Virus record (IMG/VR): IMGVR_UViG_3300023174_000130
Span: 19,216-83,215 of that record
Reading direction: 5' to 3' (one strand)
Source: a virus
DNA length: 64,000 nt
Made by a program: the position numbers and the translations under genes. The notes beneath the pieces are model-generated. The model saw nothing but the letters and a program-made list of their open reading frames with translations, was not told where the DNA came from and did no database searches. Each line of letters begins with the position of its first letter. The first letter of the stretch is position 1. Shown piece after piece: positions 17,909-51,821 of this stretch.

Positions 17909-19357
17909 TTAGATGGTGTTACCGTGGAGGTTGGTAACTCTGGTCAAGCGGTAGTATTGGTTGAGACCGGCAGTCAAGGTATCAGCGTCAGGGACGTTGT
18001 TGCTATTGAGAACATATGGGTTAGCAACTACACCATAACGGGTCTTGAAGGCAATACGAGGTTGGAAAGTATTTGGATCAACTGCACGTACCATTTGTAG
18101 CGGAACGTATGGGCAGTAGAACAATCCAGCATCATATGGCGATTCACCCTTATAACCAGCAACGAAGAAGTTATAACCGAGTGGGCTATATGGATCAATG
18201 TAAACCTTGATCTTACCACTTAGAACACCAGCAAAGGTGCTTTGAGTATCATCAGCATTGATTTGTGGTGAGATGGCGGGGCTTAGGCTCATGAATCCAG
18301 ACATGGCGAGGGCAGCTGCGGTATCGCTATCGCAGATGATAAAGTTGCCCTTACCACGGCGGGTTTCCTTGGCGATTGCATTGCATTCGCGTTCGATTTG
18401 GAAACTTAGACCACGGAAACGTTCAGCAGACCAACGGCCATCTGAATCGTCATCAAGATCATAGGTTCCCTTGGATGTGAGGTCGGTTTGTTGTGAACCG
18501 CTCTTAGCAACGTAGTAAATGGTCTTGACGATTTCACGGTTGATTTCGGCAAGAATTTCGGTGCTGAGAAGATTGGCCAACTCTGCTTCGGCATCTAGAC
18601 CGTGAACAGCCTTGAGATCTTGGGCAAGTTCGACGGTATAGTTGCTGCTTAGAGCACGGGTCTTGGCTTGTACAGCAACGCGGTCGATGCTGAATGCCAT
18701 TTGGTTCCAAGAACCATATTGTGGATTGGTGTAGCCACCAGTACCACCAGCAGAGAAACTTAGTGGATTGTTGCCGATACCTTCACCATTGGAAGTCAAC
18801 ATAGCGCGAAGATTTTGAAGTTCTGCAGCGCTAGGAACAACGCCATTATTAAAATTGTAACCAGCTGATAGACCCTTAGAGCTGGCAAAGGTTGATCCCA
18901 AAGTCCAACCTGAACCACCGTAAGATGCTTGTGGCTCTTGGAACATGGCTTCAACATAGCCCGATTGGCTATAGGTCTTACCAGAACCAGCGTATTGGTA
19001 ATTAGCACGCATAGCAAAGATGAGGCCGGTTGGAGCGGTCATTGGTTGAACGCCGCAGATGTCGTATGCCATTAGGTTTGGCATAGAACGACGAATGAGG
19101 CTGATTAGAACGGGATCATAACCAGATACTGCACCGGTATTATATCCGGTTGAAGTGGCTGGTCCACCAAGGTTAGCATTGCCACCCATATCTTCATAAA
19201 GATGTTGTTGGCGAAGAGCTTGTTCTTGGTTTTCCAAAAGAACTGCGGTGACTTTCTTGCGATAGTCATCTTTGATTGCGGGAAGGGCTTCGTGACTTAA
19301 GACAGGATCCCACTTTTCTGTGAGAATGTCATATGGTGTGTTTTCTTGAAAATTCAT
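17909..19357 (-). CDS. gp23: major capsid protein
   Basis: DPVLISLIRRSMPNLMAYDICGVQPMTAPTGLIFAMR, ELAQDLKAVHGLDAEAEL, FQPRIAFKTRYG. Confidence 0.99.
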   Translation of the reverse strand: MNFQENTPYDILTEKWDPVLSHEALPAIKDDYRKKVTAVLLENQEQALRQQHLYEDMGGNANLGGPATSTGYNTGAVSGYDPVLISLIRRSMPNLMAYDICGVQPMTAPTGLIFAMRANYQYAGSGKTYSQSGYVEAMFQEPQASYGGSGWTLGSTFASSKGLSAGYNFNNGVVPSAAELQNLRAMLTSNGEGIGNNPLSFSAGGTGGYTNPQYGSWNQMAFSIDRVAVQAKTRALSSNYTVELAQDLKAVHGLDAEAELANLLSTEILAEINREIVKTIYYVAKSGSQQTDLTSKGTYDLDDDSDGRWSAERFRGLSFQIERECNAIAKETRRGKGNFIICDSDTAAALAMSGFMSLSPAISPQINADDTQSTFAGVLSGKIKVYIDPYSPLGYNFFVAGYKGESPYDAGLFYCPYVPLQMVRAVDPNTFQPRIAFKTRYGVVANPYVLNSNNVPDADTLTAGLNQYYRLTRVTNLHGNTI

Positions 19358-19406
19358 TGTAGTTATTATCTCCTAATTGAGTAAAATTATTTAGTAAAGT
19401 GAAAGT

Positions 19407-20435: not shown

Positions 20436-20474
20436 AAAAAGGAATCCTTGTAAATTATTTAGTAGTTTTAATAG

Positions 20475-21862: not shown

Positions 21863-22023
21863 TCTTGTTCTTTCTTGCCTAAAATGGTTTTGGCAACAGT
21901 TTTGTACTGTTCTTGTAGACGTTGCCCTACCTTGTTATAAAGAACCTTTGAGGTTTCATTTTTAAAGGATACGGCGTTTTCTTGTACTACACTTTTGATC
22001 ATTTGGCGGATGTTGTTTTTCAT
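21859..22023 (-). CDS. small prohead core-like protein (54 aa, not in ORF track)
   Basis: MKNNIRQMIKSVVQENAVSFKNETSKVLYNKVGQRLQEQYKTVAKTILGKKEQE; ATGA overlaps at both ends; gp67/gp68 position. Confidence 0.7.
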   Translation of the reverse strand: MKNNIRQMIKSVVQENAVSFKNETSKVLYNKVGQRLQEQYKTVAKTILGKKEQE

Positions 22024-22433: not shown

Positions 22434-22434
22434 A

Positions 22435-23997
22435 TTACTGAGGCTGGCTTTCTTGGGCTTGTGCTGCTTGCTGTGCAGCCATTGCTGCCTGCTCCTGTGC
22501 TATTCGCTGTCTGTCAATCTGCATTTGTTTTTCTAGTTCAATCAGATCTTCAGGCAAATATTTTAAGATATGTGTTTTTACATAATCTGTAGAGAAATAC
22601 TTACCAATGTATGGCTCAACAAAAGAAAGCATCTTTACACGCTCTGAAAGAATTTCTGCTTCTTTGAGATCCCAGAAATAATTGTCCGTATTGAAAACTA
22701 CTTTGATATCTGTTTTAAGTTGTCTCCAGTCCTCATCGGTCATTACTCCTTTAAGAAGCAACTGAACTCTGAGCGTATCCAAGAATAACTTGGAGAACTG
22801 GAATCTCAATCTATCTATAAACTTATAAAACTTAATCTCTTCACGTGTGATCTCGGTAGATCTACCCATGTTAAAACCATTGCTTTCTGGAGTCAAGCGG
22901 CTTAGCGGTACATTAAGTGCACCGTAAAGTTTCTTTTTGAAATATTCAGCATCTTCAATTTGAGAGAGTGATTGTGCTCCCGGCAAGGTAGTGATCTCTG
23001 TACCACGTGATCCTTCACGGCGAGGCAACCAATAGTCTTCCAGAACAGACATGAATTTGCGCTCATCTCTGATTTCACCAGTATCTTGGTTATAAATTAA
23101 CCGAGTGCGGAAACGGCTCATCATATCACGCATATATTGTTCGGCTTTTTGTTTTGGAAGCTGACCAACGTCTACGTAAAATACTCTTCTTTCTGGGGCA
23201 CGAGCAATTCTATAAACAAGCAATGCATCTTCCATTTGACGCAACATGTTTAGTGGTCTGATTGCTTTATGCAAATAACCCAAAACTCGCTTGCTGTTTA
23301 GATCTACCAATCCAGATGGAACATAAACAACGCTATCCAAAGATAGATGAAGACCTTGTGGTCCGGTCATGATATAAGATTCTTTATCTGTATTTGTATA
23401 CACATAAAATTCTTCAATATCTTTGACTAACTGAACAGGAGTTCCGTTTGTCCCCTTATCCATTTCTTTTTTGAGCTTACGGATTTTTTTAATCTTTAAT
23501 GGATCAATTGGAATAATTTCCTGAATGCCTTCCATTGGCAAATCTTTATCAATTACAAGATTATAATAGATCTTGGAATCAATATACCAACGACGGAAAG
23601 TTTCATACGATCTGTGATTAAAATCTAATAGATGAAGAATTGTTTCAAATTCTTTGTATATTTTTGTTTTAATATTTTCTGAAATATTGCAGTTTGATAA
23701 ATCTAATTTTACTGGCTTATGATCAGTACCTGGAACAATTGCGGCATTTACAATTTCATCAATAGCATTATCTAGTTCTGGATATACCGACATATTACGA
23801 TACTGAATTACAGATTGCTGTTCGTCACGCATTGTTGCAGCGTAATCAAGAGCAGTTCCAAAAAATCCACCAGCTTCAACAGTTACAGTACCATCAAACA
23901 TCTCTGGAGCAGCAAATGCCTGTATTGCTTGCTCTCGGGCATCAGCCTTTGTTGGCTGTTTTTTTCCAAACTGAAATCCAAATATATCAATTTCCAT
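22435..23997 (-). CDS. gp20: portal protein
   Basis: YLHKAIRPLNMLRQMEDALLVYRIARAPERRVFYVDVG, EDYWLPRREG. Confidence 0.99.
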   Translation of the reverse strand: MEIDIFGFQFGKKQPTKADAREQAIQAFAAPEMFDGTVTVEAGGFFGTALDYAATMRDEQQSVIQYRNMSVYPELDNAIDEIVNAAIVPGTDHKPVKLDLSNCNISENIKTKIYKEFETILHLLDFNHRSYETFRRWYIDSKIYYNLVIDKDLPMEGIQEIIPIDPLKIKKIRKLKKEMDKGTNGTPVQLVKDIEEFYVYTNTDKESYIMTGPQGLHLSLDSVVYVPSGLVDLNSKRVLGYLHKAIRPLNMLRQMEDALLVYRIARAPERRVFYVDVGQLPKQKAEQYMRDMMSRFRTRLIYNQDTGEIRDERKFMSVLEDYWLPRREGSRGTEITTLPGAQSLSQIEDAEYFKKKLYGALNVPLSRLTPESNGFNMGRSTEITREEIKFYKFIDRLRFQFSKLFLDTLRVQLLLKGVMTDEDWRQLKTDIKVVFNTDNYFWDLKEAEILSERVKMLSFVEPYIGKYFSTDYVKTHILKYLPEDLIELEKQMQIDRQRIAQEQAAMAAQQAAQAQESQPQ

Positions 23998-24005
23998 ATT
24001 TCACC

Positions 24006-24533
24006 TTAGTTTCTTCTTGTAACATTAGTTATCTCAATATAATCAAAAACAATGATAACGTTAAAACTATTTAACGTGTTTGGATTACCCATGTTTAGAT
24101 TTATTGGTTGAATTCCTGCAGGCCAACAGCCATGCAATTTATATTCTTTTAAAACAGAATTTGGTCCATCTTCACCATTTAAATTTAAATGTTGAATTTT
24201 CCAATTATCCGCTTTATATTTTTTTGGTAGTGTAGATTTATTCGTATCGTGATCATTTATAAGATTTTGCCACTTTTGAATTCTTCCCCAAAGATTATTT
24301 GATCCAGTATCGTCCCATGCAGTAAAAGACCACGTACCATAATCTTTTTCACCGGGATAATGAAATTTTCTACCAAAATAATCATAGCTTATAGTCTTAG
24401 AAGCTGCATTAGGTACAGTAGCTGCTCTTACATGGAAGTCTGTAAATTTTCCACCTGTGGGAAAACTACCAATTATTTTAAATCGGTTAGATCTTGATCC
24501 TCCAAAGAAATTTGTTTTAAAATCTATGAGCAT
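24006..24533 (-). CDS. gp19: tail tube protein (paralog 2)
   Basis: GGSRSNRF, YFGRKFHYPGEK, LHGCWP, FDY. Confidence 0.82.
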   Translation of the reverse strand: MLIDFKTNFFGGSRSNRFKIIGSFPTGGKFTDFHVRAATVPNAASKTISYDYFGRKFHYPGEKDYGTWSFTAWDDTGSNNLWGRIQKWQNLINDHDTNKSTLPKKYKADNWKIQHLNLNGEDGPNSVLKEYKLHGCWPAGIQPINLNMGNPNTLNSFNVIIVFDYIEITNVTRRN

Positions 24534-24536
24534 AGT

Positions 24537-25079
24537 TTAGCTATTGTAGTTGTCTTGAATTTTTAGATAATCAAAAGTAAGTGTTGCACTAAAACCAACG
24601 AAGCCAACTTCACCCATGTTAAGATTAATTTCACCAACAACTGATGGCCAGCATTTATACAAAGTAATTGTTTTTATAGGATTTCCGTTTAAATCCAATT
24701 GTTTTATTTGCCAAGTTGTTTGAAGAGTTTTATAGGAATAATCATTTCTAACAACTTTATGGGTATAATGGCCGTCCATTTGTTCCGACCAAGTATGTAA
24801 TGCTTTCCAAATATTTTTAGTATTATTATCGTCGTAAATACCTATAGCCCAAGTACTATAAATTCTATCACCAGCATATGTGACCATTCTTCCACGATAT
24901 GGAACAGAAATAGTATTAATTTGAGTAGCTGGCAATGATGCAGATACTATTTTAAATGCTGCATCATTTTTATCAATACTAATTCCATTTGGCCATTTTG
25001 GCATAACCACGAACCTATTGGCACGGGTTCCACCGTTAAAACCATCTTTAAAATTAATTATTGAATTTTTTGATGGCAT
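24537..25079 (-). CDS. gp19: tail tube protein (paralog 1)
   Basis: GGTRANRF, SASLPA, VPYRGRMVTYAGDRIYSTW, LTFDY. Confidence 0.9.
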   Translation of the reverse strand: MPSKNSIINFKDGFNGGTRANRFVVMPKWPNGISIDKNDAAFKIVSASLPATQINTISVPYRGRMVTYAGDRIYSTWAIGIYDDNNTKNIWKALHTWSEQMDGHYTHKVVRNDYSYKTLQTTWQIKQLDLNGNPIKTITLYKCWPSVVGEINLNMGEVGFVGFSATLTFDYLKIQDNYNS

Positions 25080-29176: not shown

Positions 29177-29854
29177 TTATGAACCTCCTGTGCAACCAGC
29201 TTCATTAAATGGATCATTGGGATTAAATCCATATGAATTGCCTTCTGTTCGCAATTCATCATTAACTCCAAATGTTGTGCCTAGATTATTTGCAATTGGT
29301 ATAATTACCGATCCAGATAACCCTGCTGTAGTTGATGTGTATGGAGAATTGATATCACTATTCAAAGTTTGAATCTTTTCATAGCTATATGTGAAGAGTT
29401 CTGCAGTTATCTGATAAGAATAAAGCTTACCTAAAGGATAAAGAGGATTTTCATGCTCAACAAAATTAATTTCAAATAATGATTTGGATAAAGGAAAATA
29501 AATTAAATCGCCTTCTCTGGGTCTTGTTATGGTTTTATCGATAGCTGTAACTTCATCTCTAAATCTGCGTCTAGCCATTAATAAAGAAATTTTGTCTTTA
29601 ATTTCTAATCCAAATTGAGTAATAACATCAGTACCATCAAATCCTTTATATGACTGTATGTACATTTCTATTGTATAAATCTTTTCAAAAGAAGAAGATG
29701 GGTCTTCACCAAATATTTTATCAATGTTAAAATATTTTCTAGGAACATAAAAACAATCCTGACCCACTCCTTGAATTAATTCTACCGTCAAATCTTCGAT
29801 TAAACGTTGTTCTGTTATGACAGAAGTGGTATTGATGTATGGATTTGTTGCCAT
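29177..29854 (-). CDS. gp14: neck protein
   Basis: EQRLIEDL, FGEDP, RPREGDLIYFP, FEINFVEHE. Confidence 0.94.
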   Translation of the reverse strand: MATNPYINTTSVITEQRLIEDLTVELIQGVGQDCFYVPRKYFNIDKIFGEDPSSSFEKIYTIEMYIQSYKGFDGTDVITQFGLEIKDKISLLMARRRFRDEVTAIDKTITRPREGDLIYFPLSKSLFEINFVEHENPLYPLGKLYSYQITAELFTYSYEKIQTLNSDINSPYTSTTAGLSGSVIIPIANNLGTTFGVNDELRTEGNSYGFNPNDPFNEAGCTGGS

Positions 29855-29855
29855 A

Positions 29856-30686
29856 TTATCCGATCATTGGATCAACTGGAAGCTCTTGAGTCTTCAACAG
29901 CATTTGTTCTATTACTTCTAATTCTTTTACAGCATCTTGCATTATAGCTGCAGCATTTAGTGAGGCACCACCGGGCAATGGCATTCCTGTGAACTTTATT
30001 AAGTTTTGTGCCCATTGTTTTTTAAGTAATGCTGCGTAGTGCCTTTGGAAAATACGATCATCCCATGCTTTTATATAATAATCTGGATTAACTTGAACAT
30101 ACGCTTCAACCATGAGAAAATTTATATGATTCATTCTAGAATCTTTTACTTCTAAAAATAATCTATTTGTTGTTTTTGTATATGTAAATGATACAGGATA
30201 ATTAAACACATCATTTATTAAGCTAAGGTATTGCATACTTTCCATGTATGAGGCCATTGGTCCCTGTGATAGGCCACCTTGGTTAAAGTATAAACCAAAG
30301 AAATCAAATAATGTCATTTGATATCTCAAATCAAACATATAATCTCCAACCGTACTATTTGGGCTGTAAACTTGACTAATGGTTCGAATGTCCGAGGCAG
30401 CTGGCCAGTATGCAGTACTTCCACTTTCACTTGAAGTTACACCTTGAGCACCAACAGCATAACCAAATTTTGTTACATCAAAATATTTGCCAGTTATATT
30501 ATCTTGTGTAATTGGTACAACAAACTGTGCACGTTGATTAAAGTCAAAATGACGTTCGTGCATATATTCCAAAGATTCATCTAAACGATCTTCAGCTTGT
30601 TGAGGATCTATGTTTATTTGAATTACTGGGGCACCCAGTTTTCTAAATGCATAATTGATAAAATCCTGTCGGGTGGTTATAGCCAT
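29856..30686 (-). CDS. gp13: neck protein
   Basis: RKLGAPVIQINI, KKQWAQNLIKFTGMPLPGG. Confidence 0.94.
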   Translation of the reverse strand: MAITTRQDFINYAFRKLGAPVIQINIDPQQAEDRLDESLEYMHERHFDFNQRAQFVVPITQDNITGKYFDVTKFGYAVGAQGVTSSESGSTAYWPAASDIRTISQVYSPNSTVGDYMFDLRYQMTLFDFFGLYFNQGGLSQGPMASYMESMQYLSLINDVFNYPVSFTYTKTTNRLFLEVKDSRMNHINFLMVEAYVQVNPDYYIKAWDDRIFQRHYAALLKKQWAQNLIKFTGMPLPGGASLNAAAIMQDAVKELEVIEQMLLKTQELPVDPMIG

Positions 30687-33258: not shown

Positions 33259-34068
33259 TCATGAATAATATCGAACACCTGCTGCTTTACCACTACTATC
33301 TAATGGTGCTATTTGCGTAAGTGACAGTGCTGTTTCGTGTGTTCCAGAATTTGTAATTACGTGTTTAATGCCCGTAACATAATATGTTGTATTTAAAACA
33401 GAATTTGTTGATGAGTAAGGAAATCCACTTATACCATTTATACGAAGATTGGCAAGTTGACCAACTTTTAATGTAAAATCACCGGCAATTGTCACGTCCA
33501 CTTTTCTTCCATATTTAATTGCATCTAGAAATTCTGCTCGTTTTACTGGAGTTTCAACTGGAGTATTCCAAAAAGATGCAACATTTAATCTTAGTTTTAT
33601 ATAAGCTTCATAATTTGGCTTAATATCTGGGCACAGGCAACTATATGGGGCAGAAGGAGTTGCCCATAAACATCCCATCCAATCAAGTCCTAATTTTGTA
33701 TTAATTTGATTGCATTCCTCATTAACAACATCAAAATAAAGATCAATGGGCTGCGTTGTATTTAAAGAAGGAACAGTTGAAGGCCCAGTCCAAAGAGTAT
33801 AATTTGAACCAGACCCTCCACATCCACCTCCACCAACAAAATTTTGTGTACTTCCACATGAGCCTTTAGTTGCTGTATAAAAACCAATAGCTTCTGCAAT
33901 TTCTAAAACTCCAGGAAATCTATCAAAACACTCTTGCAACGAGGAGGGAATTCCTGTTGCTCCTCTTGTTATTGCTGCATTTGCACATTCATATGCATCT
34001 TTATTTGCTACAGGATAAAAAGTTTCTTGTGAATAGTTAGTACCATATGTAATAATCTGTTTTGCCAT
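33259..34068 (-). CDS. baseplate hub-related protein (gp27 C-terminal-like)
   Basis: VTIAGDFTLKVGQ...YYVTGIKHVI...HETALSL resembles the hub C-terminal barrel. Confidence 0.55.
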   Translation of the reverse strand: MAKQIITYGTNYSQETFYPVANKDAYECANAAITRGATGIPSSLQECFDRFPGVLEIAEAIGFYTATKGSCGSTQNFVGGGGCGGSGSNYTLWTGPSTVPSLNTTQPIDLYFDVVNEECNQINTKLGLDWMGCLWATPSAPYSCLCPDIKPNYEAYIKLRLNVASFWNTPVETPVKRAEFLDAIKYGRKVDVTIAGDFTLKVGQLANLRINGISGFPYSSTNSVLNTTYYVTGIKHVITNSGTHETALSLTQIAPLDSSGKAAGVRYYS

Positions 34069-34078: not shown

Positions 34079-36088
34079 TTAACAAGTTCCGTCTACAACA
34101 TTTTCGGCCCAGAAATATGTAACACTATTATTGGGATCTATCTGTTCAATGCATACTCTTGCAACATGCATTATATTTGCAGATTCTTCAAATGTAGCTG
34201 TAGCTGGTGCGCCAATTGGTCTGTATCCAAATCCAGATGCGGCTGATGTATTTGACCAACCCGGTGGCAAATATGCTCCAGTTAAGCCTCTTTCATTTAA
34301 ATTTATCGCCCATGTTGCATCTTGACTATCATTTGATTTTTCTGAAGGATCTAATGACCATTGTTCCAACAAATGCGGATAATACGTATTACCAGATCCA
34401 CCTGCTCCAGACGCTGAACCACATGCTCCTGATATTCCAGAAGAAAACAATATCTTGTTCCATTTATACCTATAAAATTTTGCACCACTTGGTAGTTCTG
34501 GCGTTGTTTCTGTTTGTGGTTGGAAATTGCCACCAGTGCCACCTGTACCAGTAGCACCATAATAAGCAGTATCTGGCTCATATCGCTGTAATACAGCAAA
34601 GAAACAATTTTCTCCTCTTTTACCCATACAACATAAAGAGTGAATAACAAAGTTTTGTTGTTCTATTTTTCTTAATTGTTCTATGGTATTTTGTATTTTA
34701 GATCCGCCAGTAGGACCAGTTGGTCCAGCAAATTCACTAGATCCACAGTTTCCATTTGTCAAAGCTTTAAAGGTATTATATCTAATATCCATTACTTTTT
34801 GTAAATTCGTACTTTCACCAGGAATAATAGATGTAGCACTAGTTGCATCTGTATCATTTTCATTAGGATAATTTGGATGAATTGGTGTCAAATCAAACAT
34901 ATTTTTCCACATATCAGGACTATCCAAAAATGCCATGTAGCCTTTATCACCCATTAAATTCAATGCACCGTATGACGATTCCATACCATATTGATTTCCC
35001 AACATATTTGTAATGGATCTGTCATTAGTTGGTGTGCCCCCATCATAATATCCCCAAGAATTTTCAGGATAAATTAAATCACCACCAGAAGGAGCTTCAG
35101 TTGCTCTTCCAGCAACACTAACTACATCAATATTATATTTTTGACCATCATCTTGAAATTGAAAAGTTAAATTTTTTAAAGCATTATTTTGTACAGCATT
35201 AATAGCATCACTCTTAGCATCACCAGTTAATCCTGGATCAACTGTTAGATTATTTGTATCTAAGTATTTTGGAGTTTTTCTAATGTAGTAATAATTCTTA
35301 GATATCCATTGATACGCAGGATTTGTGGCCAAGAAATATGCCTTGCGGTACTGTTTTCCATCCGATAATCTTTCTTCAACCGCATCACCATTATAAACAG
35401 CAACATTTACTGGTTCTTCATCTTCTGCACCTACCATATCTCTTGAAAAAGATTTAAAATTAAATGCCCCATTCATAGAAGTCCAAAAGAAAAAATTAGG
35501 ATTTTTGTTTTGATCAACTGCCATGGTTGACAAATAATTCATCATTTCAATTGCATTATCTGGCAGTGCTTCTTCTCTATTATTAAAAGGTATAAATGGT
35601 CTGTATAAGAAATAATTGGATGCCGAATCACGATATCCTTCATCAGCACCAAATGTATGTACCATTTGAGCTACAAATTCATCCACAGTATAAACTTGTG
35701 GGCTTTTATATCCCAATAACTTATTCAAAGAATTGGTAGAAAAATATCTGTAATAATGATTTGTAAAATTTATTACTAATAAAGTTTCTTCAGTATCAGA
35801 TGCTGCGTTATTACTATATGAAACGCTGGTAATATCACATTCCCATTTATCCCCATTAAAAAATTCAATAGTTAAAGTTGTGACAGCATTTAATTCAATT
35901 GCGCTCGCAATATCTTGTTTGTCTTTTACCAATAATGCTCCAGATGGAAGAACATCATTGATATTTTCGACTATTTCTAATCTTTCAAATTGGCATTCTT
36001 GATTTTGTCTTAAAATATCAAGATCGCCTAAATAAATTGATTTTATTGTAGAATACGCTGGATTAAATCTGGACTGTGTATTTGCCAT
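34079..36088 (-). CDS. baseplate hub-related protein (gp27 N-terminal-like)
   Basis: LEIVENIND..PSGALLVKD, MMNYLS...FFFW...FNFKSF; follows gp53. Confidence 0.55.
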   Translation of the reverse strand: MANTQSRFNPAYSTIKSIYLGDLDILRQNQECQFERLEIVENINDVLPSGALLVKDKQDIASAIELNAVTTLTIEFFNGDKWECDITSVSYSNNAASDTEETLLVINFTNHYYRYFSTNSLNKLLGYKSPQVYTVDEFVAQMVHTFGADEGYRDSASNYFLYRPFIPFNNREEALPDNAIEMMNYLSTMAVDQNKNPNFFFWTSMNGAFNFKSFSRDMVGAEDEEPVNVAVYNGDAVEERLSDGKQYRKAYFLATNPAYQWISKNYYYIRKTPKYLDTNNLTVDPGLTGDAKSDAINAVQNNALKNLTFQFQDDGQKYNIDVVSVAGRATEAPSGGDLIYPENSWGYYDGGTPTNDRSITNMLGNQYGMESSYGALNLMGDKGYMAFLDSPDMWKNMFDLTPIHPNYPNENDTDATSATSIIPGESTNLQKVMDIRYNTFKALTNGNCGSSEFAGPTGPTGGSKIQNTIEQLRKIEQQNFVIHSLCCMGKRGENCFFAVLQRYEPDTAYYGATGTGGTGGNFQPQTETTPELPSGAKFYRYKWNKILFSSGISGACGSASGAGGSGNTYYPHLLEQWSLDPSEKSNDSQDATWAINLNERGLTGAYLPPGWSNTSAASGFGYRPIGAPATATFEESANIMHVARVCIEQIDPNNSVTYFWAENVVDGTC

Positions 36089-36089: not shown

Positions 36090-36962
36090 TCACTTATACT
36101 TAGTTGTTATAAAAGAGCTCTGAACCAGACCTAATTGGCTTGGAACATATGCTTGTACGGTTTTGGATACAGTATCAATATACTGTTTCACGGATACTGA
36201 AGTTTCACCCACCAATAAAGTTGGAGTAGCTGGTCCAGGAGCTGGTGCTTCTGATTCTGAAGCAGGAAGTTCATCATCAATTGTTGAATTCGATGATGCG
36301 GGTTGTCTATAAATTATTTTAGCATCTTGTGGTGTTGAAATTGATAAAATTTTATCCAAATAACTTGTTTTATTGGCTGTATAATAATTTCCGGCTGATG
36401 AATAAGATCCATCAGAATTTAATTGGATTACTGCAACATGGTCTTGTGTTGTATTTACTCTAATAAAAGGACCAGTACCACCACGCTGAGGTCCAATAGT
36501 CATACTGCCATCATAAAAAGAGGTTTCTTCAATAAGGGCAAATGGTCCATTTAATTGAAAATTACCAGTAGAGCCATAATTATATGATGCTCCGGTATTT
36601 CCTATGTACGGAAGCACAATACTGCCAACAGGAAAAGCCACGCCACCTGATGTGACTCCAGCTGTAGGAAATAAAGTCATATTAATTTTTTCTTCATTAT
36701 TTTTTATATATAAAACAGCATTTTCTTCCAATAAAAAGAATGGATTGATAACATTATTTGCTGCAACAATAGCCCAGAAGCTATCTGAATCAGTGTATAC
36801 GTTATAGGCTGCTTCTAATAAAGTTGTTTTATTATCTATTGTAACTGTACCTTCTTCTATCGTTGCATGCTCTACATCCAAATAAGTAAAAAAATCGGAG
36901 ATTTTAAAATCACCTATACTACTGGTAAATACCGTTTTTGGAAGATTATTAAAAAATTTCAT
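36090..36962 (-). CDS. gp53: baseplate wedge protein (LysM-like)
   Basis: MKFFNNLPK, AYNVYTDSDSFWAIVAANNVINP. Confidence 0.8.
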   Translation of the reverse strand: MKFFNNLPKTVFTSSIGDFKISDFFTYLDVEHATIEEGTVTIDNKTTLLEAAYNVYTDSDSFWAIVAANNVINPFFLLEENAVLYIKNNEEKINMTLFPTAGVTSGGVAFPVGSIVLPYIGNTGASYNYGSTGNFQLNGPFALIEETSFYDGSMTIGPQRGGTGPFIRVNTTQDHVAVIQLNSDGSYSSAGNYYTANKTSYLDKILSISTPQDAKIIYRQPASSNSTIDDELPASESEAPAPGPATPTLLVGETSVSVKQYIDTVSKTVQAYVPSQLGLVQSSFITTKYK

Positions 36963-37827: not shown

Positions 37828-38256
37828 ATGGCATACAGGACAATATTTAACCCAAAGAATCCTAAAAAATATGCTGGGGATTCATCTAAAATTGTATGCA
37901 GATCCTTGTGGGAACGTAATGTATGCAATTTTTGTGATGAACACCCCAATATAATTAAATGGTCTTCTGAAGAAATAGCCATACCTTATGTCAGTCCAAT
38001 TGATAAAAAAATGCACAACTACTATCCAGATTTTTTAATACAATTTAAGAACTCCGATGGAGTGCATACATGGATGGTTGAGGTCAAACCAAAAAAACAA
38101 ACTTTTTTAAAAGAAAATGCTTCAAAAAAAGAAAAGGTAACTTGGATCATAAACAATGCCAAATGGAATGCTGCTAAAAACTATTGCAACAATAATAGTT
38201 TTGTTTTTAAAATTTTAACAGAAAAAGATTTATTTTCTAATGCCAACTCCAAATAA
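37828..38256 (+). CDS. gp4: head completion nuclease
   Basis: PKNPKKYAGD, RSLWER, WSSEEIAIPY, YYPDF, EVKPKKQT. Confidence 0.95.
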   Translation: MAYRTIFNPKNPKKYAGDSSKIVCRSLWERNVCNFCDEHPNIIKWSSEEIAIPYVSPIDKKMHNYYPDFLIQFKNSDGVHTWMVEVKPKKQTFLKENASKKEKVTWIINNAKWNAAKNYCNNNSFVFKILTEKDLFSNANSK

Positions 38257-38848
38257 CAATTCAATTTTATCAATAAAAGACTTTTTTGATCGACACAATG
38301 GTCTTCAAAGATCCAATAGATTTACATTATCTTTTTCTAACTTACCCGGAACACTGCCCAAAGTATCCAACAATGATTTAAATCCATTAGCAATAACAAT
38401 AGGTGCCAGAGCTATAGATGGTGTTGCAGATGGTTTGGCTGGCTATGGTCCCGGTAGAACAATTCCAAGATCTCAAAAGTTTCCTCAAGGTATACTTTTA
38501 ACTTTTCCAGTAACCAATGATAATTTTATTACACTGTTTTTCAATTCATGGTTTAATTTAATATATTCAGGTGGTAGACAATCACCAAAAGCAGCATCAA
38601 CTAATAATGCTAGGAACCCTACACGTTTTCCATATCAAGTTCAATTTTATGACGATATTATTGCGCAAACACAAATGAAGATTTCATTATTGGATCCAAA
38701 TGGAAATCCAAATGTTTCATATAATTTTTTTGAAGTATATCCTGTTGAATGTTTGCCAATTGAATTAAATATGTTGAAGTCTAATGACTATTCAACATAT
38801 ACAGTTCTTATGATGTTTAGAGATTTTAATTTTTATCAAGGAGTCTAA
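38240..38848 (+). CDS. tail-tube-like baseplate protein (gp54-like)
   Basis: GLQRSNRF, FFNSWFNLI, FYDD, FEVYP, FR; tube-fold pattern. Confidence 0.7.
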   Translation: MPTPNNNSILSIKDFFDRHNGLQRSNRFTLSFSNLPGTLPKVSNNDLNPLAITIGARAIDGVADGLAGYGPGRTIPRSQKFPQGILLTFPVTNDNFITLFFNSWFNLIYSGGRQSPKAASTNNARNPTRFPYQVQFYDDIIAQTQMKISLLDPNGNPNVSYNFFEVYPVECLPIELNMLKSNDYSTYTVLMMFRDFNFYQGV

Positions 38849-41398: not shown

Positions 41399-42382
41399 AT
41401 GCCATTTCCATCACCTTATTATGGATCAGATTACGTAGTAATTAATAGCGGAGGCACCTTTGCCGTAGGTGCAGACCCTGTTACCAATATTTCTGGTGGC
41501 TATTCATACTATGTACAGTACTATAAATTGGGATTCGGTGCTACTGGTGCGTTTACTCCAGTTACTTCCAGCAATCCTTTCCCTGTAACCGTTGCAACTG
41601 GCCTAACAGCAACAATTTCTGGCTTTTCTGGCCCAATATCAATTGTAGGAACTGTAGGTGGACAGGCTGTTACAGTAGGGGGAAGCGTAGTTGTATCAGG
41701 TCTAACAGCATCTCCTGTATATGTACAAACTGCACCTAGCTGCAGAGTAGAAGTTACTGGTGGAAGATATTTAAGTAGACTTAATGACAGTGTTTCTGTT
41801 TTTGGACCAAGTGGAAGTACTTGGCTATATGCAAATCTAGTAGATAGTACGGGAACTCCAATTGGAAGTTCTGGTAACCCAATGTACACCAACATAATTG
41901 GTGCAACTATTAGCGTTACGATTAACCCCACCGTTGGTGTGACCAATCAATCTGGAACTGCCCTTAGAGTACAAGGGTTTACTGGTGGCACACCACTTTC
42001 AACAACTGTAGGCAATACTGTTGGAATTAATGACACCGCAATTCTTGCATCTATGGCAGGAATAAGCAATCAACTTGGAACTTTAAATACAAATCTTGGA
42101 ACTCTTGGAATTAGCAGACCAACCACGTTTATCAGTGGTAGATTAACCGCTACAACTGGTGTAACTGGATTATATCCTGCTGGATATACGACAATTTCTG
42201 GTATTAATATTAAAGCATCGTCATCCAATACCGATCTTGTTTATATAAACTCTGACGGTGTAGCTTCAATTGGATATGAATTGGATCCAGGACAAAATAT
42301 ATTCTTAAATGTTCAAAATCTTAGAACCATTTATTTAAGAGCAAAAACTTCTTCGCAAGTAGTTTCTTACATGGCTAGCTAA
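41399..42382 (+). CDS. putative virion structural (fibre/decoration) protein
   Basis: Gly/Thr/Val-rich beta repeats; C-terminal IKASSSNTDLVYI...GYELDPGQ; CTAAATA upstream. Confidence 0.7.
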   Translation: MPFPSPYYGSDYVVINSGGTFAVGADPVTNISGGYSYYVQYYKLGFGATGAFTPVTSSNPFPVTVATGLTATISGFSGPISIVGTVGGQAVTVGGSVVVSGLTASPVYVQTAPSCRVEVTGGRYLSRLNDSVSVFGPSGSTWLYANLVDSTGTPIGSSGNPMYTNIIGATISVTINPTVGVTNQSGTALRVQGFTGGTPLSTTVGNTVGINDTAILASMAGISNQLGTLNTNLGTLGISRPTTFISGRLTATTGVTGLYPAGYTTISGINIKASSSNTDLVYINSDGVASIGYELDPGQNIFLNVQNLRTIYLRAKTSSQVVSYMAS

Positions 42383-42384
42383 AA

Positions 42385-43707
42385 ATGAGTAGTGCAGCTT
42401 TAACAGTAGTAAAATCAACACAATCATTTACATTAGAATTTATTGGTTCTACTGCTGATCCTTGCTTGACCAAGGGTTATTTGGAGTCATCGCCACAAGT
42501 TCAACTAGTTGGAAACAGTTTTTTCTTTAATTATTCGCAAAGTAAAAACGTCAATGATTTTAAGTTTTTAAAATTATTTTTTGATAAACTTGGAGTCGGA
42601 TCTACTTTTTCTTTTAGTTCTGGTAAATATACAAATATTACTACTGGATCCGTATTATCTTGGGATGGTCAATTTACACTACAAGGAAAAACTGGGGCGT
42701 ATAACCAGTATCTATATTTTAGTGGATTATCTGGAACATCTGGGATTTCTGCTGGCATATATGATAGAAATCTTTTTACAACTCCAATTCAATTTACTGC
42801 TGTAACGGGTGGCACTGCTGCATTGCTAGTAAACAAATCACCGGATATGGATCCTTTGAATTTTACTTATCTGGGAATATACGGAAGTGATTATAGTTTT
42901 GAAGAATATTTGCAAGTTAACAACAGTACATTAAATCAAAAAAGAATACTTATTAAAAATGTATTGAAACTAAATGATGGGACAGAAGTAATTTATATTG
43001 ATCCAACTGTCAGTATAACAAATGAAAACTTATATTTTCAACAGTCAATGGTTGACATTTATATGAGAGGAGTTTTGACTCCCGATGACATCAACTATGA
43101 TCAAACATTAAATGGAATTCTTAGAATTTCAAATACATATCCGGGTGTTTATACTCAACTACTTGAAAATCAAAATAAACAACAATTTTTATTAAGACAA
43201 CTTTTAAATCCAGTATATCCAGTAAATTATTATTGGTATCCAAATACTAAACTTGTTAATTTTAGTTCTGCTGACGTTGAAGCATATACGAATGCTAGCT
43301 ATGTTTTTGCTTCAATATTTCAACTTGTCTATGATACCAATTATATTCCAGTATTTTCTACTTCTGCAATTTTAGATGTTCCCACATTAATTGGTCAAGA
43401 AGTTTATAATACAATATTGATTGATAGCAATGACACTTCTGTTTTAAACTTTAGTCCTGGGAATAATAACACCACTAAAAACTTTAAAATAGATTTATCA
43501 GATTCTAGAAATATAGATTTAGATATTTCTGCTTATAGCGACTATGCATGTTCAGTTCCATTGACTAGAAATTTTAGAATCAATGGAACACCCGGTAGAG
43601 AAGGAGCGGCCTTCATTTATTATTCAGACCGCCCCGATTCTCTACAGAGCATTTATTTAAAACTTGAACGAGAAACAACTTTAATCTTGAGTGTGGTAAT
43701 TTCTTAA
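42385..43707 (+). CDS. hypothetical, probable virion protein
   Basis: 440-aa ORF co-oriented with 41399 gene; several GxTG/GxSG motifs. Confidence 0.65.
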   Translation: MSSAALTVVKSTQSFTLEFIGSTADPCLTKGYLESSPQVQLVGNSFFFNYSQSKNVNDFKFLKLFFDKLGVGSTFSFSSGKYTNITTGSVLSWDGQFTLQGKTGAYNQYLYFSGLSGTSGISAGIYDRNLFTTPIQFTAVTGGTAALLVNKSPDMDPLNFTYLGIYGSDYSFEEYLQVNNSTLNQKRILIKNVLKLNDGTEVIYIDPTVSITNENLYFQQSMVDIYMRGVLTPDDINYDQTLNGILRISNTYPGVYTQLLENQNKQQFLLRQLLNPVYPVNYYWYPNTKLVNFSSADVEAYTNASYVFASIFQLVYDTNYIPVFSTSAILDVPTLIGQEVYNTILIDSNDTSVLNFSPGNNNTTKNFKIDLSDSRNIDLDISAYSDYACSVPLTRNFRINGTPGREGAAFIYYSDRPDSLQSIYLKLERETTLILSVVIS

Positions 43708-43985: not shown

Positions 43986-43986
43986 T

Positions 43987-44289: not shown

Positions 44290-44311
44290 AATGTACCTTT
44301 CTTTATATTAA

Positions 44312-44947: not shown

Positions 44948-44984
44948 ATAATACCTTTCATGTTATTTATGTCAATTGTACACA

Positions 44985-47900: not shown

Positions 47901-50900
47901 TGGAGCAGCTAGTTGTTGCGTACCCCTTTTTTCAGCAAGCTCTCTTTTTCCTGATATTGTTGGATATCCATACGATGATTGATTATATGTATTATCACTA
48001 GTTGGAGTTGCAAACAAAGAACCACCAGATGTTATTGCAATAGTATGTTTAACTCCACATGCTACATCTTTCCATATAAAAAATTTATTATTAAGATCGT
48101 ATCTAAATTGATTTACACCAGGATAACAATTTGCTTGAATATAATCAGAAATGTAACGAGTATCATCATAAAAAATTCCATAATCGATATCAGCATCATC
48201 TCCTCCACCATTTCCCTTTCCCCACGCTTTCAAAACATACATTTCATTGCTGTTTGACTCAGCACAACTAAATGAACCAGATGGATATATAAAAAATGGT
48301 GTACCAACAATTTCCCAACCAGAATTTGAAAATTTCTTTCGTTTGTAATTAGTTTCATTGCATCCAGGATTTACGTGCCATAAATTTGGACCAGAGACAA
48401 CACCTTCTGTATATTCCACCAAAGCAACAGCAAATTTTCCTTTTGAAGATATTTTTTCTACTCTTCCATCTGGAAGAGTAAAATTTTGATTTTCTTCTTC
48501 ATATATTATTCCAAGTTCGGGTGCTACCGATAAATTACATGGAACTGCTCCAACATCCGTATCAAAATAATTTCCATCGCATATTGGTTGAATATCACCA
48601 GTAGGACATGGAGGTTCAACATCTACTTGTATATTTGCATATTCTGGTGAGCAACCTACATCTGCAGGATCTCCACTGGGTGGTACTGATCCTCGTCCAA
48701 ATGCTCTGACCTTTCCATTTGTTGTTACGGCAAACCAAGTTTGTTGACCACCAAAGAGAGAGGTATATGCTAGAAGATCGTCGGGATCTTGATTAGATTT
48801 AACATTTAAAACACTTTCTTTGGTATCACATATACCTGCTCCAGTGCATCCCCATGTTGTCAAACCTGCTCCAATAGGTGTTGGCCATAATTTGGCTCTA
48901 CGCGGACCAGCAAACATTGGACCTGGAATACCACTAACAAGATTTTCTTGCCTTGGATTGATTAAATTATTTTTCATCAATTTAGCAGTAACATATGGTT
49001 TTAATGCTGCCCAAATGGTAAAATCATCTTTATCAGAAAAATTGGCTTCTGGATTGTCTGCTAAGATTTTTCCTTCCAACCAATTAATCATTTCATAATA
49101 TCCAGTTTTCTTACCTAAGAAAGCTTCGACATCTGCATCAAGAAATACTGGATCAGGGCGCCCATCTGCTGGTGGGTGTTCTGGATCTATTGGTTCTAAT
49201 TCTACACTATCTAATAATTCTATTAATTCTGTGGCTATATCTCCTGCATGATCTTTAACACTGATAACATTGTATCGTATCATTTCTTTTAACCATGCTG
49301 TTACATATTCGTAATCATCTACATCATTTGATTCTACTACAGGTTCATTATAAATGGTCTCTCCTGGATCTGTAATTTTATTATAAAAATAAAGATAAAA
49401 TTTTTCTATAAAATCTTCTCCACTAAAGAAATTTCCATTTACAACAACATTTTTAGCTATAGAAATTTTTTCCATAGCATGTAAATCAGAATGAAACAAA
49501 GGAACAACTGAAGATCCATACATTACTCTGCGAGGGAAACTACGCATAGCCTGATATCTAAATGCTTCTCTAGGATCATATATAAAATTATTTTTTGTCC
49601 ATCTGCCAGCATATGGTCTTTCATATGGAGTTATTAACATATTACAATGATTCATGGGTATCGGTGGAGCCGGTGTAAACAGTGCTTTACTATGATACGC
49701 CCAGGATTCAAAATGATGATCCATACCAATCAAACCAACCATTTTATGGAATAAATTACTTTTTTTATTAAAAGTCTTTTTAAACGATGCATTATTCCAA
49801 CCATATTTACCTGGTGAGATTATAGTAGGTGAATAAAATGGACCTAATACTTCTTGTTCTTTTGCTACTGTTGATCCATAATGAAAAACATCTTTGGCAG
49901 CAGGATATAATCTTTGAGATATTCTACTCAAATAAGGAGATATTCCTCTTGCAAAACATTGTTTGTTATAATTTGGATTGAACAAAGGAGTATTTGCATT
50001 CTCACCTTGTGTTCCAATATTACAATATGATCCTAAAGTTGGAGAAGATTTTCCAAAACCACTTGCTTTTGGCCAAGCTGCTCTAGCATTTCTTCTAGCA
50101 TCTAAACCACCATAACATGCAGAAGTTGTTGGATTTGATGTATTTGCACAAGAACAACAACCAGCTTCGCTGACAAACATTGGTGGAGCAAATGGCTCTT
50201 GTGAAGGAATATAGCCACCTTGTTGTACTCTTTGAGAAACATTAAAAGATTTTCTAGCAGTATCTACTAAACCACCACTTAAATGTGGATATCTCATACA
50301 TTGACATGGATATGTTGTTCTATCTCTGCATTTACATGCTATGCCAGTTGGACAATTACCAAACGCATAATGGGCCATGCAACTAAGACAAGGAGTTCCA
50401 TCACTACCATCTGCTTCATATCCACTACCAGATAATAAAAAGTCACATGTCTTTAATCCAGAAAATAGTGATTGAGTTTTTTTCCATCCCGATCCTTGTG
50501 CAATTTTTGTTTGATAATTAAAAATATATTCTGGTGGATACCAAACCATATGACATCCAGTATATCGATATATAAAATATAATGGAGCGGCGCCCGGTGA
50601 TCCTCCATTAACAGGACAAACTCCGCATTGCCAAGGTTTACCTTGTAAACCATCCTCATTAATAGGACCATTTTCGCCAGGTCCAATCTCTGGAATAATA
50701 AAAGAATTTACAGAACTTATTAATCCTGATCCACCGGGTGTTTGATTGGGTGCAGGAATTGTTGGTGGATATTTTGTTTCTGGACCAAAGAAATTATTTA
50801 ATTCGGCACCACCGTTTGTTAATAATCTAGATTGATCTAAAGTAGTTAGTAATGGATCAAGTTCTGCAACTAAACCATTTCCATTTACTAATATATTTCC

Positions 50901-51821
50901 ATTATATAGATCCGGATTGTCAAATGTTGTACCTTTTGCCGAATCATAATTTTTAGTATAAATTGGATGCGCAAATAATTGATTTATATTATTGTGTTGA
51001 TTTACTGTATCACCATAATAACCACTACAATATACTTCGCATTCCTTTTGACACGATGCACAAAAATTAATATTTGCATCTTTACAATCTACTGAATTAT
51101 TTCTAATACAGTCTAGATCATAACCATTATCTATTATACACTGTTTGCAAACAGGGTAAAGATTATCTAATTTATCTTTAAATCTTTTATTTGCACTTGG
51201 TACAACTGTTTCAACTGCGTTAGAACTAATATTTTTTTTAATCGTAGTTTGTTTAGTCTTTTGCGCTATAAGTTCATCAGTAGTTTTAATATTATATGCT
51301 GTACCATAATTTATTGGAGTTTTTGTTCCACGGCTAACTAACTTTTTAAACATCTGTGAAACATTAAAAGTAACATTGTCTGAATGAGTATTAGTAGTTT
51401 GTTTGAAAGTAGGACAATTAGGATCTATAGTAGGATCACACTTACCAGTACATATACTACAGCATTCTCTACATCCTCCACCAAATACTACAGATTCTGT
51501 AGCAGCGGGTACCTCAGGAGCTCCGTCAAGTGTACAATTATCGTCTTTACACTTATATACGGGTGGACATTCACTGCATTGACTTGGTGCGCATTGCGTA
51601 CAACAAGCTGGGCAAGGTTCTACACCTGGTACATTTGGATTTTGATTATCTAATTCCAAACTGCTTGTTCTAGATACTGGTCTATTAATTTTTAAAGAAA
51701 TTAAATCACCAGGTGAAACCGGTACGGCGCTATCTAATAAATTTCCAAAAATTGTAACAAATTGATTTGTTAAGCAATAATCATCAACCGCAACATCACA
51801 GCAACATAATTTTTTAGGCAT
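44985..51821 (-). CDS. giant Cys-rich protein with RCC1-like repeats (putative receptor-binding/virion protein)
   Basis: 2278 aa; starts MPKKLCCCD; repeats such as VACGVKHTIAIT and VAAGHYHSIALSDDNNLKIWG; TATAAATA upstream. Confidence 0.75.
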   Translation of the reverse strand: MPKKLCCCDVAVDDYCLTNQFVTIFGNLLDSAVPVSPGDLISLKINRPVSRTSSLELDNQNPNVPGVEPCPACCTQCAPSQCSECPPVYKCKDDNCTLDGAPEVPAATESVVFGGGCRECCSICTGKCDPTIDPNCPTFKQTTNTHSDNVTFNVSQMFKKLVSRGTKTPINYGTAYNIKTTDELIAQKTKQTTIKKNISSNAVETVVPSANKRFKDKLDNLYPVCKQCIIDNGYDLDCIRNNSVDCKDANINFCASCQKECEVYCSGYYGDTVNQHNNINQLFAHPIYTKNYDSAKGTTFDNPDLYNGNILVNGNGLVAELDPLLTTLDQSRLLTNGGAELNNFFGPETKYPPTIPAPNQTPGGSGLISSVNSFIIPEIGPGENGPINEDGLQGKPWQCGVCPVNGGSPGAAPLYFIYRYTGCHMVWYPPEYIFNYQTKIAQGSGWKKTQSLFSGLKTCDFLLSGSGYEADGSDGTPCLSCMAHYAFGNCPTGIACKCRDRTTYPCQCMRYPHLSGGLVDTARKSFNVSQRVQQGGYIPSQEPFAPPMFVSEAGCCSCANTSNPTTSACYGGLDARRNARAAWPKASGFGKSSPTLGSYCNIGTQGENANTPLFNPNYNKQCFARGISPYLSRISQRLYPAAKDVFHYGSTVAKEQEVLGPFYSPTIISPGKYGWNNASFKKTFNKKSNLFHKMVGLIGMDHHFESWAYHSKALFTPAPPIPMNHCNMLITPYERPYAGRWTKNNFIYDPREAFRYQAMRSFPRRVMYGSSVVPLFHSDLHAMEKISIAKNVVVNGNFFSGEDFIEKFYLYFYNKITDPGETIYNEPVVESNDVDDYEYVTAWLKEMIRYNVISVKDHAGDIATELIELLDSVELEPIDPEHPPADGRPDPVFLDADVEAFLGKKTGYYEMINWLEGKILADNPEANFSDKDDFTIWAALKPYVTAKLMKNNLINPRQENLVSGIPGPMFAGPRRAKLWPTPIGAGLTTWGCTGAGICDTKESVLNVKSNQDPDDLLAYTSLFGGQQTWFAVTTNGKVRAFGRGSVPPSGDPADVGCSPEYANIQVDVEPPCPTGDIQPICDGNYFDTDVGAVPCNLSVAPELGIIYEEENQNFTLPDGRVEKISSKGKFAVALVEYTEGVVSGPNLWHVNPGCNETNYKRKKFSNSGWEIVGTPFFIYPSGSFSCAESNSNEMYVLKAWGKGNGGGDDADIDYGIFYDDTRYISDYIQANCYPGVNQFRYDLNNKFFIWKDVACGVKHTIAITSGGSLFATPTSDNTYNQSSYGYPTISGKRELAEKRGTQQLAAPNGYQALFYYYHLPKPGYFTEDEWNTLIQRNSTLSLPENKEWWNITHCVNSNQPVGSVSWSEGENAIPCDIRCQLFQPSIDQGNLLGASKNSCGAEWGYSCIKAIEPDVPVYTQVAAGHYHSIALSDDNNLKIWGSYVKVDEDGEPLNEENSFTNNNPIPVFLPHSEIFPDEWKLGPAGGVTGCSDICATQENCGENWDHSKYKVYTTADKTIFSSASIFAIDGGPDYSIMARKAGDKHRLVVWGNSEMVTAVSGVTYSGLTAFYAKNYDKIDKITAGPNAIGVVYRRKNSSKTRIEIFPRPDANRGLTAGIGKNDYSDLSFTSGSVSTIFTSGTQAQTWKASSFDVDHSKLQFKNFGDLPIYFRTQAFFRAVPGRWDFSKWFFGMPCNSIQSEISQNIVGNVDLTSVYYTKTHDLNRSFSGHPQYYWMRPDWRRIQQATPLHTYEPYPGKGCGMLRDRDGRDGLRPNTENGNGGDPNSSIATANRNLNNEFGACFGGDICWIGDGSPSAFAFSGYGFTPGRGTPFCKCNDAVCGCPPSRREKQAYDCSGGPYFGERCFGNVNGRIGFNSNKDYFIQSAKGFGKVSSDNMDTGLGQCCGVVKTNITGFFYAKRNYYYGYNAETSLYEVQTAPIPYRNHYVGNNYPVPSGVYGMTSSELINELMTPKNSIPKAYNVESTMSYPYVYVGGRTLYTLKKHLSQSIVGTACDICKVVPNDDPCRTENPCGSGNGASVCQSSVENLVGPGGWAHSYGRKFCTDAPPPISINGFMNDSINGSFNKILYMDAAKTDDWLGPLVSFTGYTGPLPPGMTFACNCWCGDRSSFASSGGGCCDCPRDLYPTGSCPNNDRSCPGCKFCCRLNPNLIYRVDKEYSLDDPINYYPSTKPLPGMGTEAEEPVPISGIPRLWRIYDDVYSDYSSLNCGGLTVGTALCFIGMDGQTESGPFEAVCIPSEEGVPQPFGKTANMQCFVIEE

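Follow-up and report, generated by a model that had tools for sequence, protein, structure and literature searches.

The particle proteins of an uncultured T4-like myovirus, known from the 83.2-kb contig of IMG/VR record IMGVR_UViG_3300023174_000130, are rich in the tetrapeptide G-x-[ST]-[GA], and this over-representation is real, specific to the order of the residues and more than chance would give. We analysed the right-hand part of the contig (64,000 nucleotides, positions 19,216 to 83,215 of the record; hereafter the window) and also the first 19 kb of the contig, upstream of it. The original prediction had taken the motif for an O-glycosylation acceptor sequon served by the enzymes of a sugar gene island in the window, with a glycan-coated virion as the outcome. 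The evidence set out below favours another view, in which the motif probably reflects a bias in those myovirus structural proteins that face outward, arising chiefly from structure or low complexity, and is not an established sequon; the excess is weak evidence for a sugar-coated virion, because relatives without sugar genes show an equal excess in capsid and sheath. Judging from sequence and gene order, a glycosyltransferase of family 2 (GT2) together with collagen-like fibres, encoded upstream of the window, would be a better candidate for glycosylation than the island and the scattered motifs.

The virion set comprised 23 proteins (8670 residues) assigned by a PHROG match together with position in the late gene block; eight of its members have no family match (open reading frames (ORFs) 30695, 31151, 32865, 33259, 36090, 41399, 42385 and 44985, named by their first window coordinate). 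The non-virion set, which included the scaffold, the protease, the terminases and ORFs 20475, 21859 and 22020, omitted ORFs below 70 residues and everything ending past 60000, and all ORFs came from longest-ORF calling, with approximate start positions. In the 23 virion proteins the motif occurs 48 times against 16.1 ± 3.9 expected from whole-protein shuffles (2.99-fold). When residues were shuffled within blocks of 30, 20, 12 or 8, the expectation was 19.0, 19.8, 21.1 or 21.9, and under every shuffle setting 0 of 1000 shuffles attained 48, so the predicted enrichment beyond composition holds. Eleven other orders of the same residue classes gave 0.87- to 1.68-fold, with the exception of [GA]-x-[ST]-G, which has the same core. 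Because the motif had been picked after the sequences were read, we scanned all three-residue patterns at six spacings (48,000 possible), and G-x-T-G (21 versus 4.4, Poisson P 9.6e-9) ranked first among the 1511 patterns with at least five occurrences. The Thr form (31 versus 7.8 expected) is favoured over the Ser form (17 versus 8.3) in the window, and the x position is occupied by L, G, S, A, I, V, F or P, with D, E, Q and R absent. Since the Gly, Ser and Ala codons of the motif match the background and no nucleotide word is common to the 48 instances, the bias lies at the protein level. ACT encodes 71% of the 31 motif threonines compared to 39% of all virion threonines, which may be a codon-context effect before GGN.

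All tetrapeptides listed in the original prediction are present in the window proteins, and gp45, gp47, gp55, gp32, UvsY and the portal are free of the motif, as it had claimed. To that list we add GGSG563 in ORF 34079, GPSG136 in ORF 41399, GGSG363 and GKTA2266 in the 2278-residue protein, three motifs in ORF 33259 and GFSA162 in the tube paralog 24537. Among the non-virion proteins of the window there are two motifs only (GTTG260 of UvsW and GYSG30 of ORF 56867) versus 7.0 expected (Poisson P roughly 0.03); this depletion was dropped as an argument, as the non-virion proteins of relatives contain the motif at the expected level (see below).

The short sheath of the phage has more than 120 metagenomic homologues (48-98% identity) and IMG/VR holds 260 related stretches, so the phage belongs to a large uncultured lineage. 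Counts per family were made over 80 IMG/VR loci with only those homologues that are less than 80% identical to the window, 17 unassigned ORFs being excluded, and these homologues are not phylogenetically independent. Virion families together held 684 motifs versus 228 expected, and the other families 64 versus 58. The ratio was highest for ORF 34079 (8.3-fold, 221 versus 26.6), followed by gp14 (5.3-fold, 33 versus 6.3), ORF 33259 (5.1-fold, 96 versus 18.7, in most cases as G-x-S-G), gp13 (3.1-fold, 23 versus 7.4), the sheath (2.5-fold), the capsid protein (2.2-fold), gp15 (2.1-fold) and gp6 (1.6-fold), while no motif was found in homologues of tube 24006 (0 versus 12.7) or of the portal (0 versus 3.2), nor in families 17299, 30695, 31151 and 32865. 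Across 120 sheath homologues there were 409 motifs versus 156 expected, conserved down to 48% sheath identity, and in a 135.8-kb relative with 54% sheath identity the virion homologues had 43 versus 13.0 and 40 other homologues 8 versus 7.7. Epimerases of PF01370 are present in 12 of 17 large lineage contigs, all of them fragments. Sugar genes are therefore a lineage trait, and no contrast between genomes with and without them is available inside the lineage.

Such a contrast is available among 13 cultured myoviruses, in which we examined the core proteins gp13, gp14, gp15, gp18 and gp23 (T4, S-SKS1, P-SSM2, Syn30, Rhizobium RHph_I1_18, P-RSM4, Vibrio V05, Aeromonas Aes012, Salmonella kage, S-CAM4, S-RIM2, Acinetobacter Octan and Erwinia Cronus; the V05 stretch lacks gp15, gp18, gp19 and gp20, and gp15 of S-SKS1 was left out). 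We called a phage sugar-gene-free when its complete genome had neither PF01370 (epimerase) nor PF00535 (GT2), and only S-SKS1 and P-SSM2 were positive in this search, with three and five epimerase matches, respectively. The original prediction expected the motif to go together with glycosyltransferase genes across related phages, and this did not hold for the conserved core proteins: the 11 sugar-gene-free phages are equally enriched (97 versus 42.1, 2.3-fold), and S-SKS1 with P-SSM2 is no higher (22 versus 10.8). All 13 together gave 119 versus 53.2, and the core proteins of the window 12 versus 3.4, a range also reached by Syn30 (3.3-fold), S-RIM2 (3.1-fold), Rhizobium I1_18 (2.8-fold), S-CAM4 (2.8-fold) and kage (2.7-fold). 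T4 (0.8-fold) and V05 (0.45-fold) are low exceptions, so that T4 would be misleading as the sole control. For seven sugar-gene-free phages the observed count of 52 was attained in 0 of 500 whole-protein shuffles and in 0 of 500 shuffles within 8-residue blocks, and G-x-[ST]-[GA] also tops the 12 permutations of residue order in the outgroups (2.07-fold versus 1.09- to 1.74-fold). A G-P-T-G site is common to six of ten aligned capsid proteins. Because outgroup sheaths (33 versus 15.2) and capsids (24 versus 11.5) are level with the 2.5- and 2.2-fold ratios of the lineage, the excess in capsid and sheath, the bulk of the particle surface, is generic and independent of phage sugar genes. The baseplate and fibre proteins of the outgroups ('other structural') are not enriched (49 versus 49.7), and the lineage-specific excess is concentrated in five proteins without an outgroup counterpart: 34079, 33259, 36090, 41399 and 42385.

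From these counts and from the alignments, we infer that the motifs have a structural role and would come from three sources. The first would be the approximately two-fold excess in capsid, sheath and neck of T4-like and related myoviruses, with or without sugar genes. In the capsid protein of the window the motifs are GGSG147, GLSA162 and GGTG204 (residues 147-204 of 482), and the loop that holds GGTG204 is missing or altered even at approximately 90-94% capsid identity. The second source would be conserved G-(hydrophobic or small)-[TS]-[GA] positions, resembling turns or strand ends, in the outer sheath and in ORF 41399. In the sheath family (121 sequences) a small number of fixed columns holds most of the instances, and at several columns 74-100% of the sequences retain G-x-T with any fourth residue, with equal conservation before Y, L or M. 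The 12 lineage homologues of ORF 41399 (48-91% identity) have 6-10 motifs each versus approximately 2 expected and keep G-[AP]-[TS]-G at 47, G-[LIM]-T-A at 68 and other sites, each of which follows a hydrophobic stretch; Cys or Asn occasionally replaces the Ser/Thr. The third source would be length-variable (G-x-S/T)n loops in ORF 33259 and in the Cys/Gly-rich C-terminal part of the hub ORF 34079. In the hub, G-L-[TS]-G at 286 and 601 are two conserved sites, and the remaining motifs lie in length-variable, indel-rich loops that expand to (G-A-S)n runs in relatives. Turn or strand-end elements together with slippage-prone loops would account for the lineage-specific patterns no worse than a modification site would.

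Several observations weigh against this structural reading. The non-core virion proteins of the window (35 versus 11.9) stand far above the baseplate and fibre sets of the outgroups, T4 virion proteins overall show no excess (17 versus 17.9), and the class of sugar-gene-free phages is defined by just two Pfam families. Across the lineage, acidic residues are strongly avoided at x (D/E 9 versus 65 expected, in counts that are not phylogenetically independent), and the internal tube and portal are motif-free. Moreover, the collagen-like fibres that the phage itself encodes are built of G-x-T-G repeats, and the GT2 encoded beside these fibres, a conserved neighbour of them, is kin to protein glycosyltransferases. 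Finally, Clostridioides difficile SgtA modifies short G-P-T peptides with beta-O-GlcNAc on Thr and can also use Ser (PMC7157674), so the Gly/Ser/Thr loops could be substrates of a similar enzyme.

These observations lead to the alternative that survives best, although we consider it unlikely: a phage transferase would O-glycosylate Thr/Ser of G-(hydrophobic or small)-[TS]-[GA] throughout the virion, in the collagen-like fibres and in exposed loops of capsid, sheath, neck, hub and fibre. The enzyme would more likely be the GmaR/SgtA-like GT2 than an island enzyme, and the island would supply unusual nucleotide sugars and extend and methylate the glycan. The contig upstream of the window (2894-17961) encodes four collagen-repeat proteins of 890, 505, 1254 and 1788 residues together with the 407-residue GT2. 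Three of the four are (G-X-T)n proteins, with Thr at the Y position in 46 of 52, 74 of 103 and 92 of 111 triplets; in the 505-residue protein the Y position is charged (Q/R/K). The closest solved relatives of the GT2 are GmaR (E 3.8e-10) and SunS-type enzymes (approximately 1e-5), in matches that cover some 90 residues (about 5-97). In all eight lineage records that have both, a GT2 in a 410-residue frame shares the strand of a PF01391 collagen cluster and lies 2-3 kb upstream of it. In translated searches (tblastn) against cultured phages the GT2 matched 10 records, none of them T4-like, the best being a jumbo phage (31.9% identity). Along with the SgtA precedent, virion-wide modification is favoured by the order-specific three-fold excess, by its persistence across the lineage and in the independent 135.8-kb genome, by the motif-free internal proteins, by the interchange of Ser and Thr at sites with variable flanks and by the epimerases of the lineage contigs.

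Against virion-wide modification, capsid, sheath and neck are equally enriched in the 11 phages without PF01370 and PF00535, many sites are invariant columns and not shifting surface sites, and Cys or Asn stands in place of Ser/Thr at some sites in relatives. No TPR family is among the Pfam matches of the GT2 even at E<=5, and neither the GT2 nor the island has late-type promoters, although a late-type word precedes the collagen genes. A Thr-specific excess, considered as an SgtA-like signature, was dropped as inconsistent between families, the Ser form dominating the hub and 33259 families (G-x-S 10.9- and 7.3-fold). Thus, the excess that the original prediction relied on is real, virion-specific and kept in the lineage, and a GT2 is indeed encoded by the phage, but the enrichment of the outgroups and the sigma70-type promoter of the island weigh against a glycan coat built through an acceptor sequon. 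That the GT2 would O-glycosylate fibres as well as sheath, neck, hub and fibre loops, while the island builds and methylates the glycan, to give a sugar-coated particle in an abundant lineage, we likewise regard as doubtful. Alongside the structural reading of the motif, which we prefer, glycosylation of the fibres by the GT2 is possible: if there is protein glycosylation, its best-supported substrates would be the (G-X-T)n collagen-like fibres beside a GT2 of the GmaR/SunS kind, whereas the motifs dispersed over capsid and sheath would at most be targeted secondarily, if they are not mere bystanders. A more testable lead would also be offered by the GT2 that resembles protein transferases and its conserved pairing with Gly-X-Thr collagen-like fibres.

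The pairing of the motif with the island itself found no support beyond co-occurrence in the lineage, because none of the island families recognised by Pfam is a known protein transferase. The island encodes three FkbM methyltransferases, two epimerase/dehydratases, a weak UDP-Glc dehydrogenase-like ORF, a GT_PLOD, a GT47 exostosin-like and a Nucleotid_trans protein and four family-less ORFs, for which a PDB sequence search returned nothing at E<=0.1. With its nucleotide-sugar enzymes and glycosyltransferases, it fits the cyanomyovirus type of sugar gene island, and its GT47 is 45.6% identical to an ORF within the sugar island of Synechococcus phage S-SKS1. The island could therefore be unrelated to virion proteins and serve the remodelling of host surface polysaccharide, as cyanomyovirus islands of this sort are usually interpreted, or make glycans for other targets, the motif then being purely structural; as an account of the whole we find this improbable. 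The homologous island of S-SKS1 speaks for it, as do the epimerase/dehydratases, FkbM methyltransferases and GT47/GT77/PLOD-type transferases, which match polysaccharide building, and an early-looking sigma70-type promoter, and the authors of PMC12801897 interpret comparable cyanophage gene sets as modifying the host cell surface or DNA. On the other side, the families recognised in the island include no flippase, polymerase or lipid-carrier priming transferase (with four ORFs family-less), and a PLOD-type glycosyltransferase domain, whose kin act on collagen, occurs in a phage that is rich in collagen-like proteins.

Immediately before the first island gene, the promoter-like site TTGACA-16-TATATT agrees with the consensus at 11 of 12 positions and is the second best within 4700-14760. 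In the interval 14571-14658 the island and uvsY diverge from overlapping sigma70-like sites, the plus-strand site being TTGACT-16-TATACT, and the two -35 hexamers are arranged as an inverted repeat about a CTAAATAA word. Many late genes have a different signal, NTAAATA[AT]T (often CTAAATA), 11-60 nucleotides upstream, for instance at 17835, 19394, 20462, 26434, 30698, 37806, 37816 and 41361, among others; it precedes capsid, scaffold, sheath, gp13, gp48, gp4 and ORF 41399. The T4 late-promoter word TATAAATA was rejected as the signal of these genes since it is not over-represented (11 versus 9.3), and NTAAATA[AT]T looks like the late promoter that replaces T4 TATAAATA in this lineage. We derived this word ourselves from the upstream regions, and it is AT-rich, so that matches inside the island mean little; none lies within 120 nucleotides upstream of any island gene start. 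The PLOD-type domain of the island maps to 6360-7067 (PF25342, E 4.6e-20). Known relatives of this domain glycosylate collagen hydroxylysine, and in one of the collagen-like phage proteins 7 of the 52 Y positions are Lys.

That the excess is an artefact of chance, of post-hoc motif choice or of a DNA-level repeat or codon effect is scarcely credible: the motif was indeed chosen after the sequences had been read and ACT is over-used in its Thr codons, but the unbiased scan of 48,000 patterns ranks G-x-T-G first, none of 1000 shuffles attains the count, its Gly, Ser and Ala codons follow the background, its instances lack a common nucleotide word, and the excess recurs among relatives with 48-80% identity.

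Were the scattered motifs genuine acceptors, phage-encoded virion glycosylation would reach beyond mycobacteriophages into a T4-like lineage that is widespread in aquatic habitats, with the first defined acceptor motif outside actinobacteriophages, a simple predictive sequon, and consequences for host recognition, particle stability, grazing or immune evasion. Since the same excess occurs in the capsid, sheath and neck proteins of cultured phages without sugar genes, motif enrichment alone is no evidence for a sequon.

PHROG and Pfam scans gave the gene order of the window. It begins with gp45, gp46, gp47 and gp55, followed by the sugar island, and continues through UvsY and UvsW into the late structural block, with capsid, scaffold, protease, portal, two tube paralogs, the 441-residue sheath, terminases, gp15, gp14, gp13, gp6-like, gp48-like, gp4 and gp26. 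Beyond gp26 lie gp32, the family-less proteins 33259, 34079, 36090, 41399 and 42385 and the 2278-residue RCC1-repeat protein; the coordinates of the main features are given in Table 1. Identity of the capsid protein to Synechococcus myovirus capsids does not exceed about 53%. Since 12 kb of the structural block had no nucleotide match to cultured phages by megablast and the sheath had only weak C-terminal matches to them, a close cultured relative is absent.

Table 1. Features of the window and of the contig upstream of it (coordinates in the window unless stated; motif counts are for G-x-[ST]-[GA], observed versus expected where two numbers are given)
Feature	Position	Strand	Basis and motifs
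Sugar island, AT-rich, twelve ORFs, between gp55 and uvsY	4796-14570	-	Pfam; GC 0.26-0.32
Sigma70-type promoter-like site TTGACA-16-TATATT	14585-14612	-	directly upstream of first island gene
Major capsid protein (gp23-like)	17909-19357	-	PHROG 138, E 2.7e-149; 3 versus 1.2
Portal	22435-23997	-	PHROG 213 (with 45 for the tube); no motif
Tube paralog	24006-24533	-	PHROG 45; no motif
Short tail sheath, 441 residues	25079-26404	-	PHROG 23 on residues 258-437; 6 versus 1.5
Neck protein gp14	29177-29854	-	PHROG 679 or 211 (pair given for gp14 and gp13); 2 motifs
Neck protein gp13	29856-30686	-	PHROG 679 or 211 (same pair); 1 motif
Baseplate-block protein 33259, Cys/Gly-rich	33259-34068	-	no PHROG or Pfam match; 3 versus 0.8
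gp27-like baseplate hub 34079 with Cys/Gly-rich C-terminal extension	34079-36088	-	8 versus 1.3
Baseplate-block protein 36090, no known family	36090-36962	-	no PHROG or Pfam match; 3 versus 0.6; 'gp53' label unverified
Late-promoter-preceded protein 41399, no known family, probably fibre	41399-42382	+	8 versus 2.3
Neighbour 42385 of ORF 41399, no known family	42385-43707	+	6 versus 0.5; four within residues 101-123
RCC1-repeat protein, 2278 residues	44985-51821	-	PF13540; 7 versus 4.4, not clearly enriched
GT2, 407 residues	contig 16738-17961		directly upstream of collagen genes; PF00535, E 5.1e-13, residues 9-97

The earlier naming of ORF 34079 as the hub stands for its N-terminal part of approximately 200 residues, where a low-confidence model matches T4 gp27 in Foldseek (1k28_D, E 3.0e-4), and has no support beyond those residues. 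Its C-terminal two thirds have many invariant cysteines (for example in a C-C-M-G site) and hypervariable Gly/Ser loops of varying length, and may be a receptor-facing tip domain. The AlphaFold2 (AF2) model of the hub, built from an 18-row alignment, has a mean predicted local distance difference test score (pLDDT) of 44.8 with motif regions below 50, and the AF2 monomer of ORF 41399 (9-row alignment) has a mean of 43.2, with residues 1-212 unstructured and motif regions below 50. Beyond close relatives, homologues of ORF 42385 are only 25-39% identical. The tail-tube family PHROG 45 is matched by four ORFs (17299-17823, the adjacent paralog pair 24006-25079, and 38240-38848), which accompany the unusually short sheath. 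At 60000-64000 the G+C content changes from about 0.35 to 0.51-0.57 at the contig end and all ORFs are short; this part may be of foreign origin or chimerically joined.

In comparison with known systems, the island is like the sugar or 'LPS' (lipopolysaccharide) islands of the cyanomyoviruses S-SKS1, P-SSM2 and S-SCSM2R in being AT-rich and in encoding nucleotide-sugar epimerases and several glycosyltransferases, but the core virion proteins of P-SSM2 and S-SKS1 are no richer in the motif than those of island-free phages. A search of a limited literature collection gave no report of virion glycosylation in a T4-like phage or a cyanophage. Virion O-glycosylation in mycobacteriophages was reportedly described by Freeman et al. 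in 2023. Mycobacteriophage transferases decorate virion proteins in the cytoplasm (PMC12619734, PMC12801897), and the capsid and tail-tube subunits carry the glycans C-terminally (PMC12619734). The window does not match this type, since tube 24006 is motif-free, tube 24537 has one motif and the capsid motifs are in internal loops, and host type and phage family are also different. The GT2 has its closest solved sequence relatives, over its N-terminal GT2 domain, in GmaR and the SunS-type peptide S-glycosyltransferases, whose substrates are flagellin and a lantibiotic-like peptide, respectively, and not virion proteins, and the match is limited to approximately 90 residues. Listeria GmaR is a flagellin O-GlcNAc transferase. 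The likeness to the sgtA-bclA3 locus of C. difficile is one of arrangement and description: Pfam gave no TPR domain for the phage GT2, the host of the known system is a spore former and not a phage, BclA3 is a collagen-like glycoprotein of the exosporium, and scattered non-collagen sites are not among the known SgtA substrates. In both, however, a GT-A/GT2-type gene is immediately upstream of Gly-X-Thr collagen-like genes, and the tetrapeptide context is G-x-T-G. The arrangement of GT2 and collagen-like fibres in this phage thereby resembles sgtA-bclA3, if incompletely.

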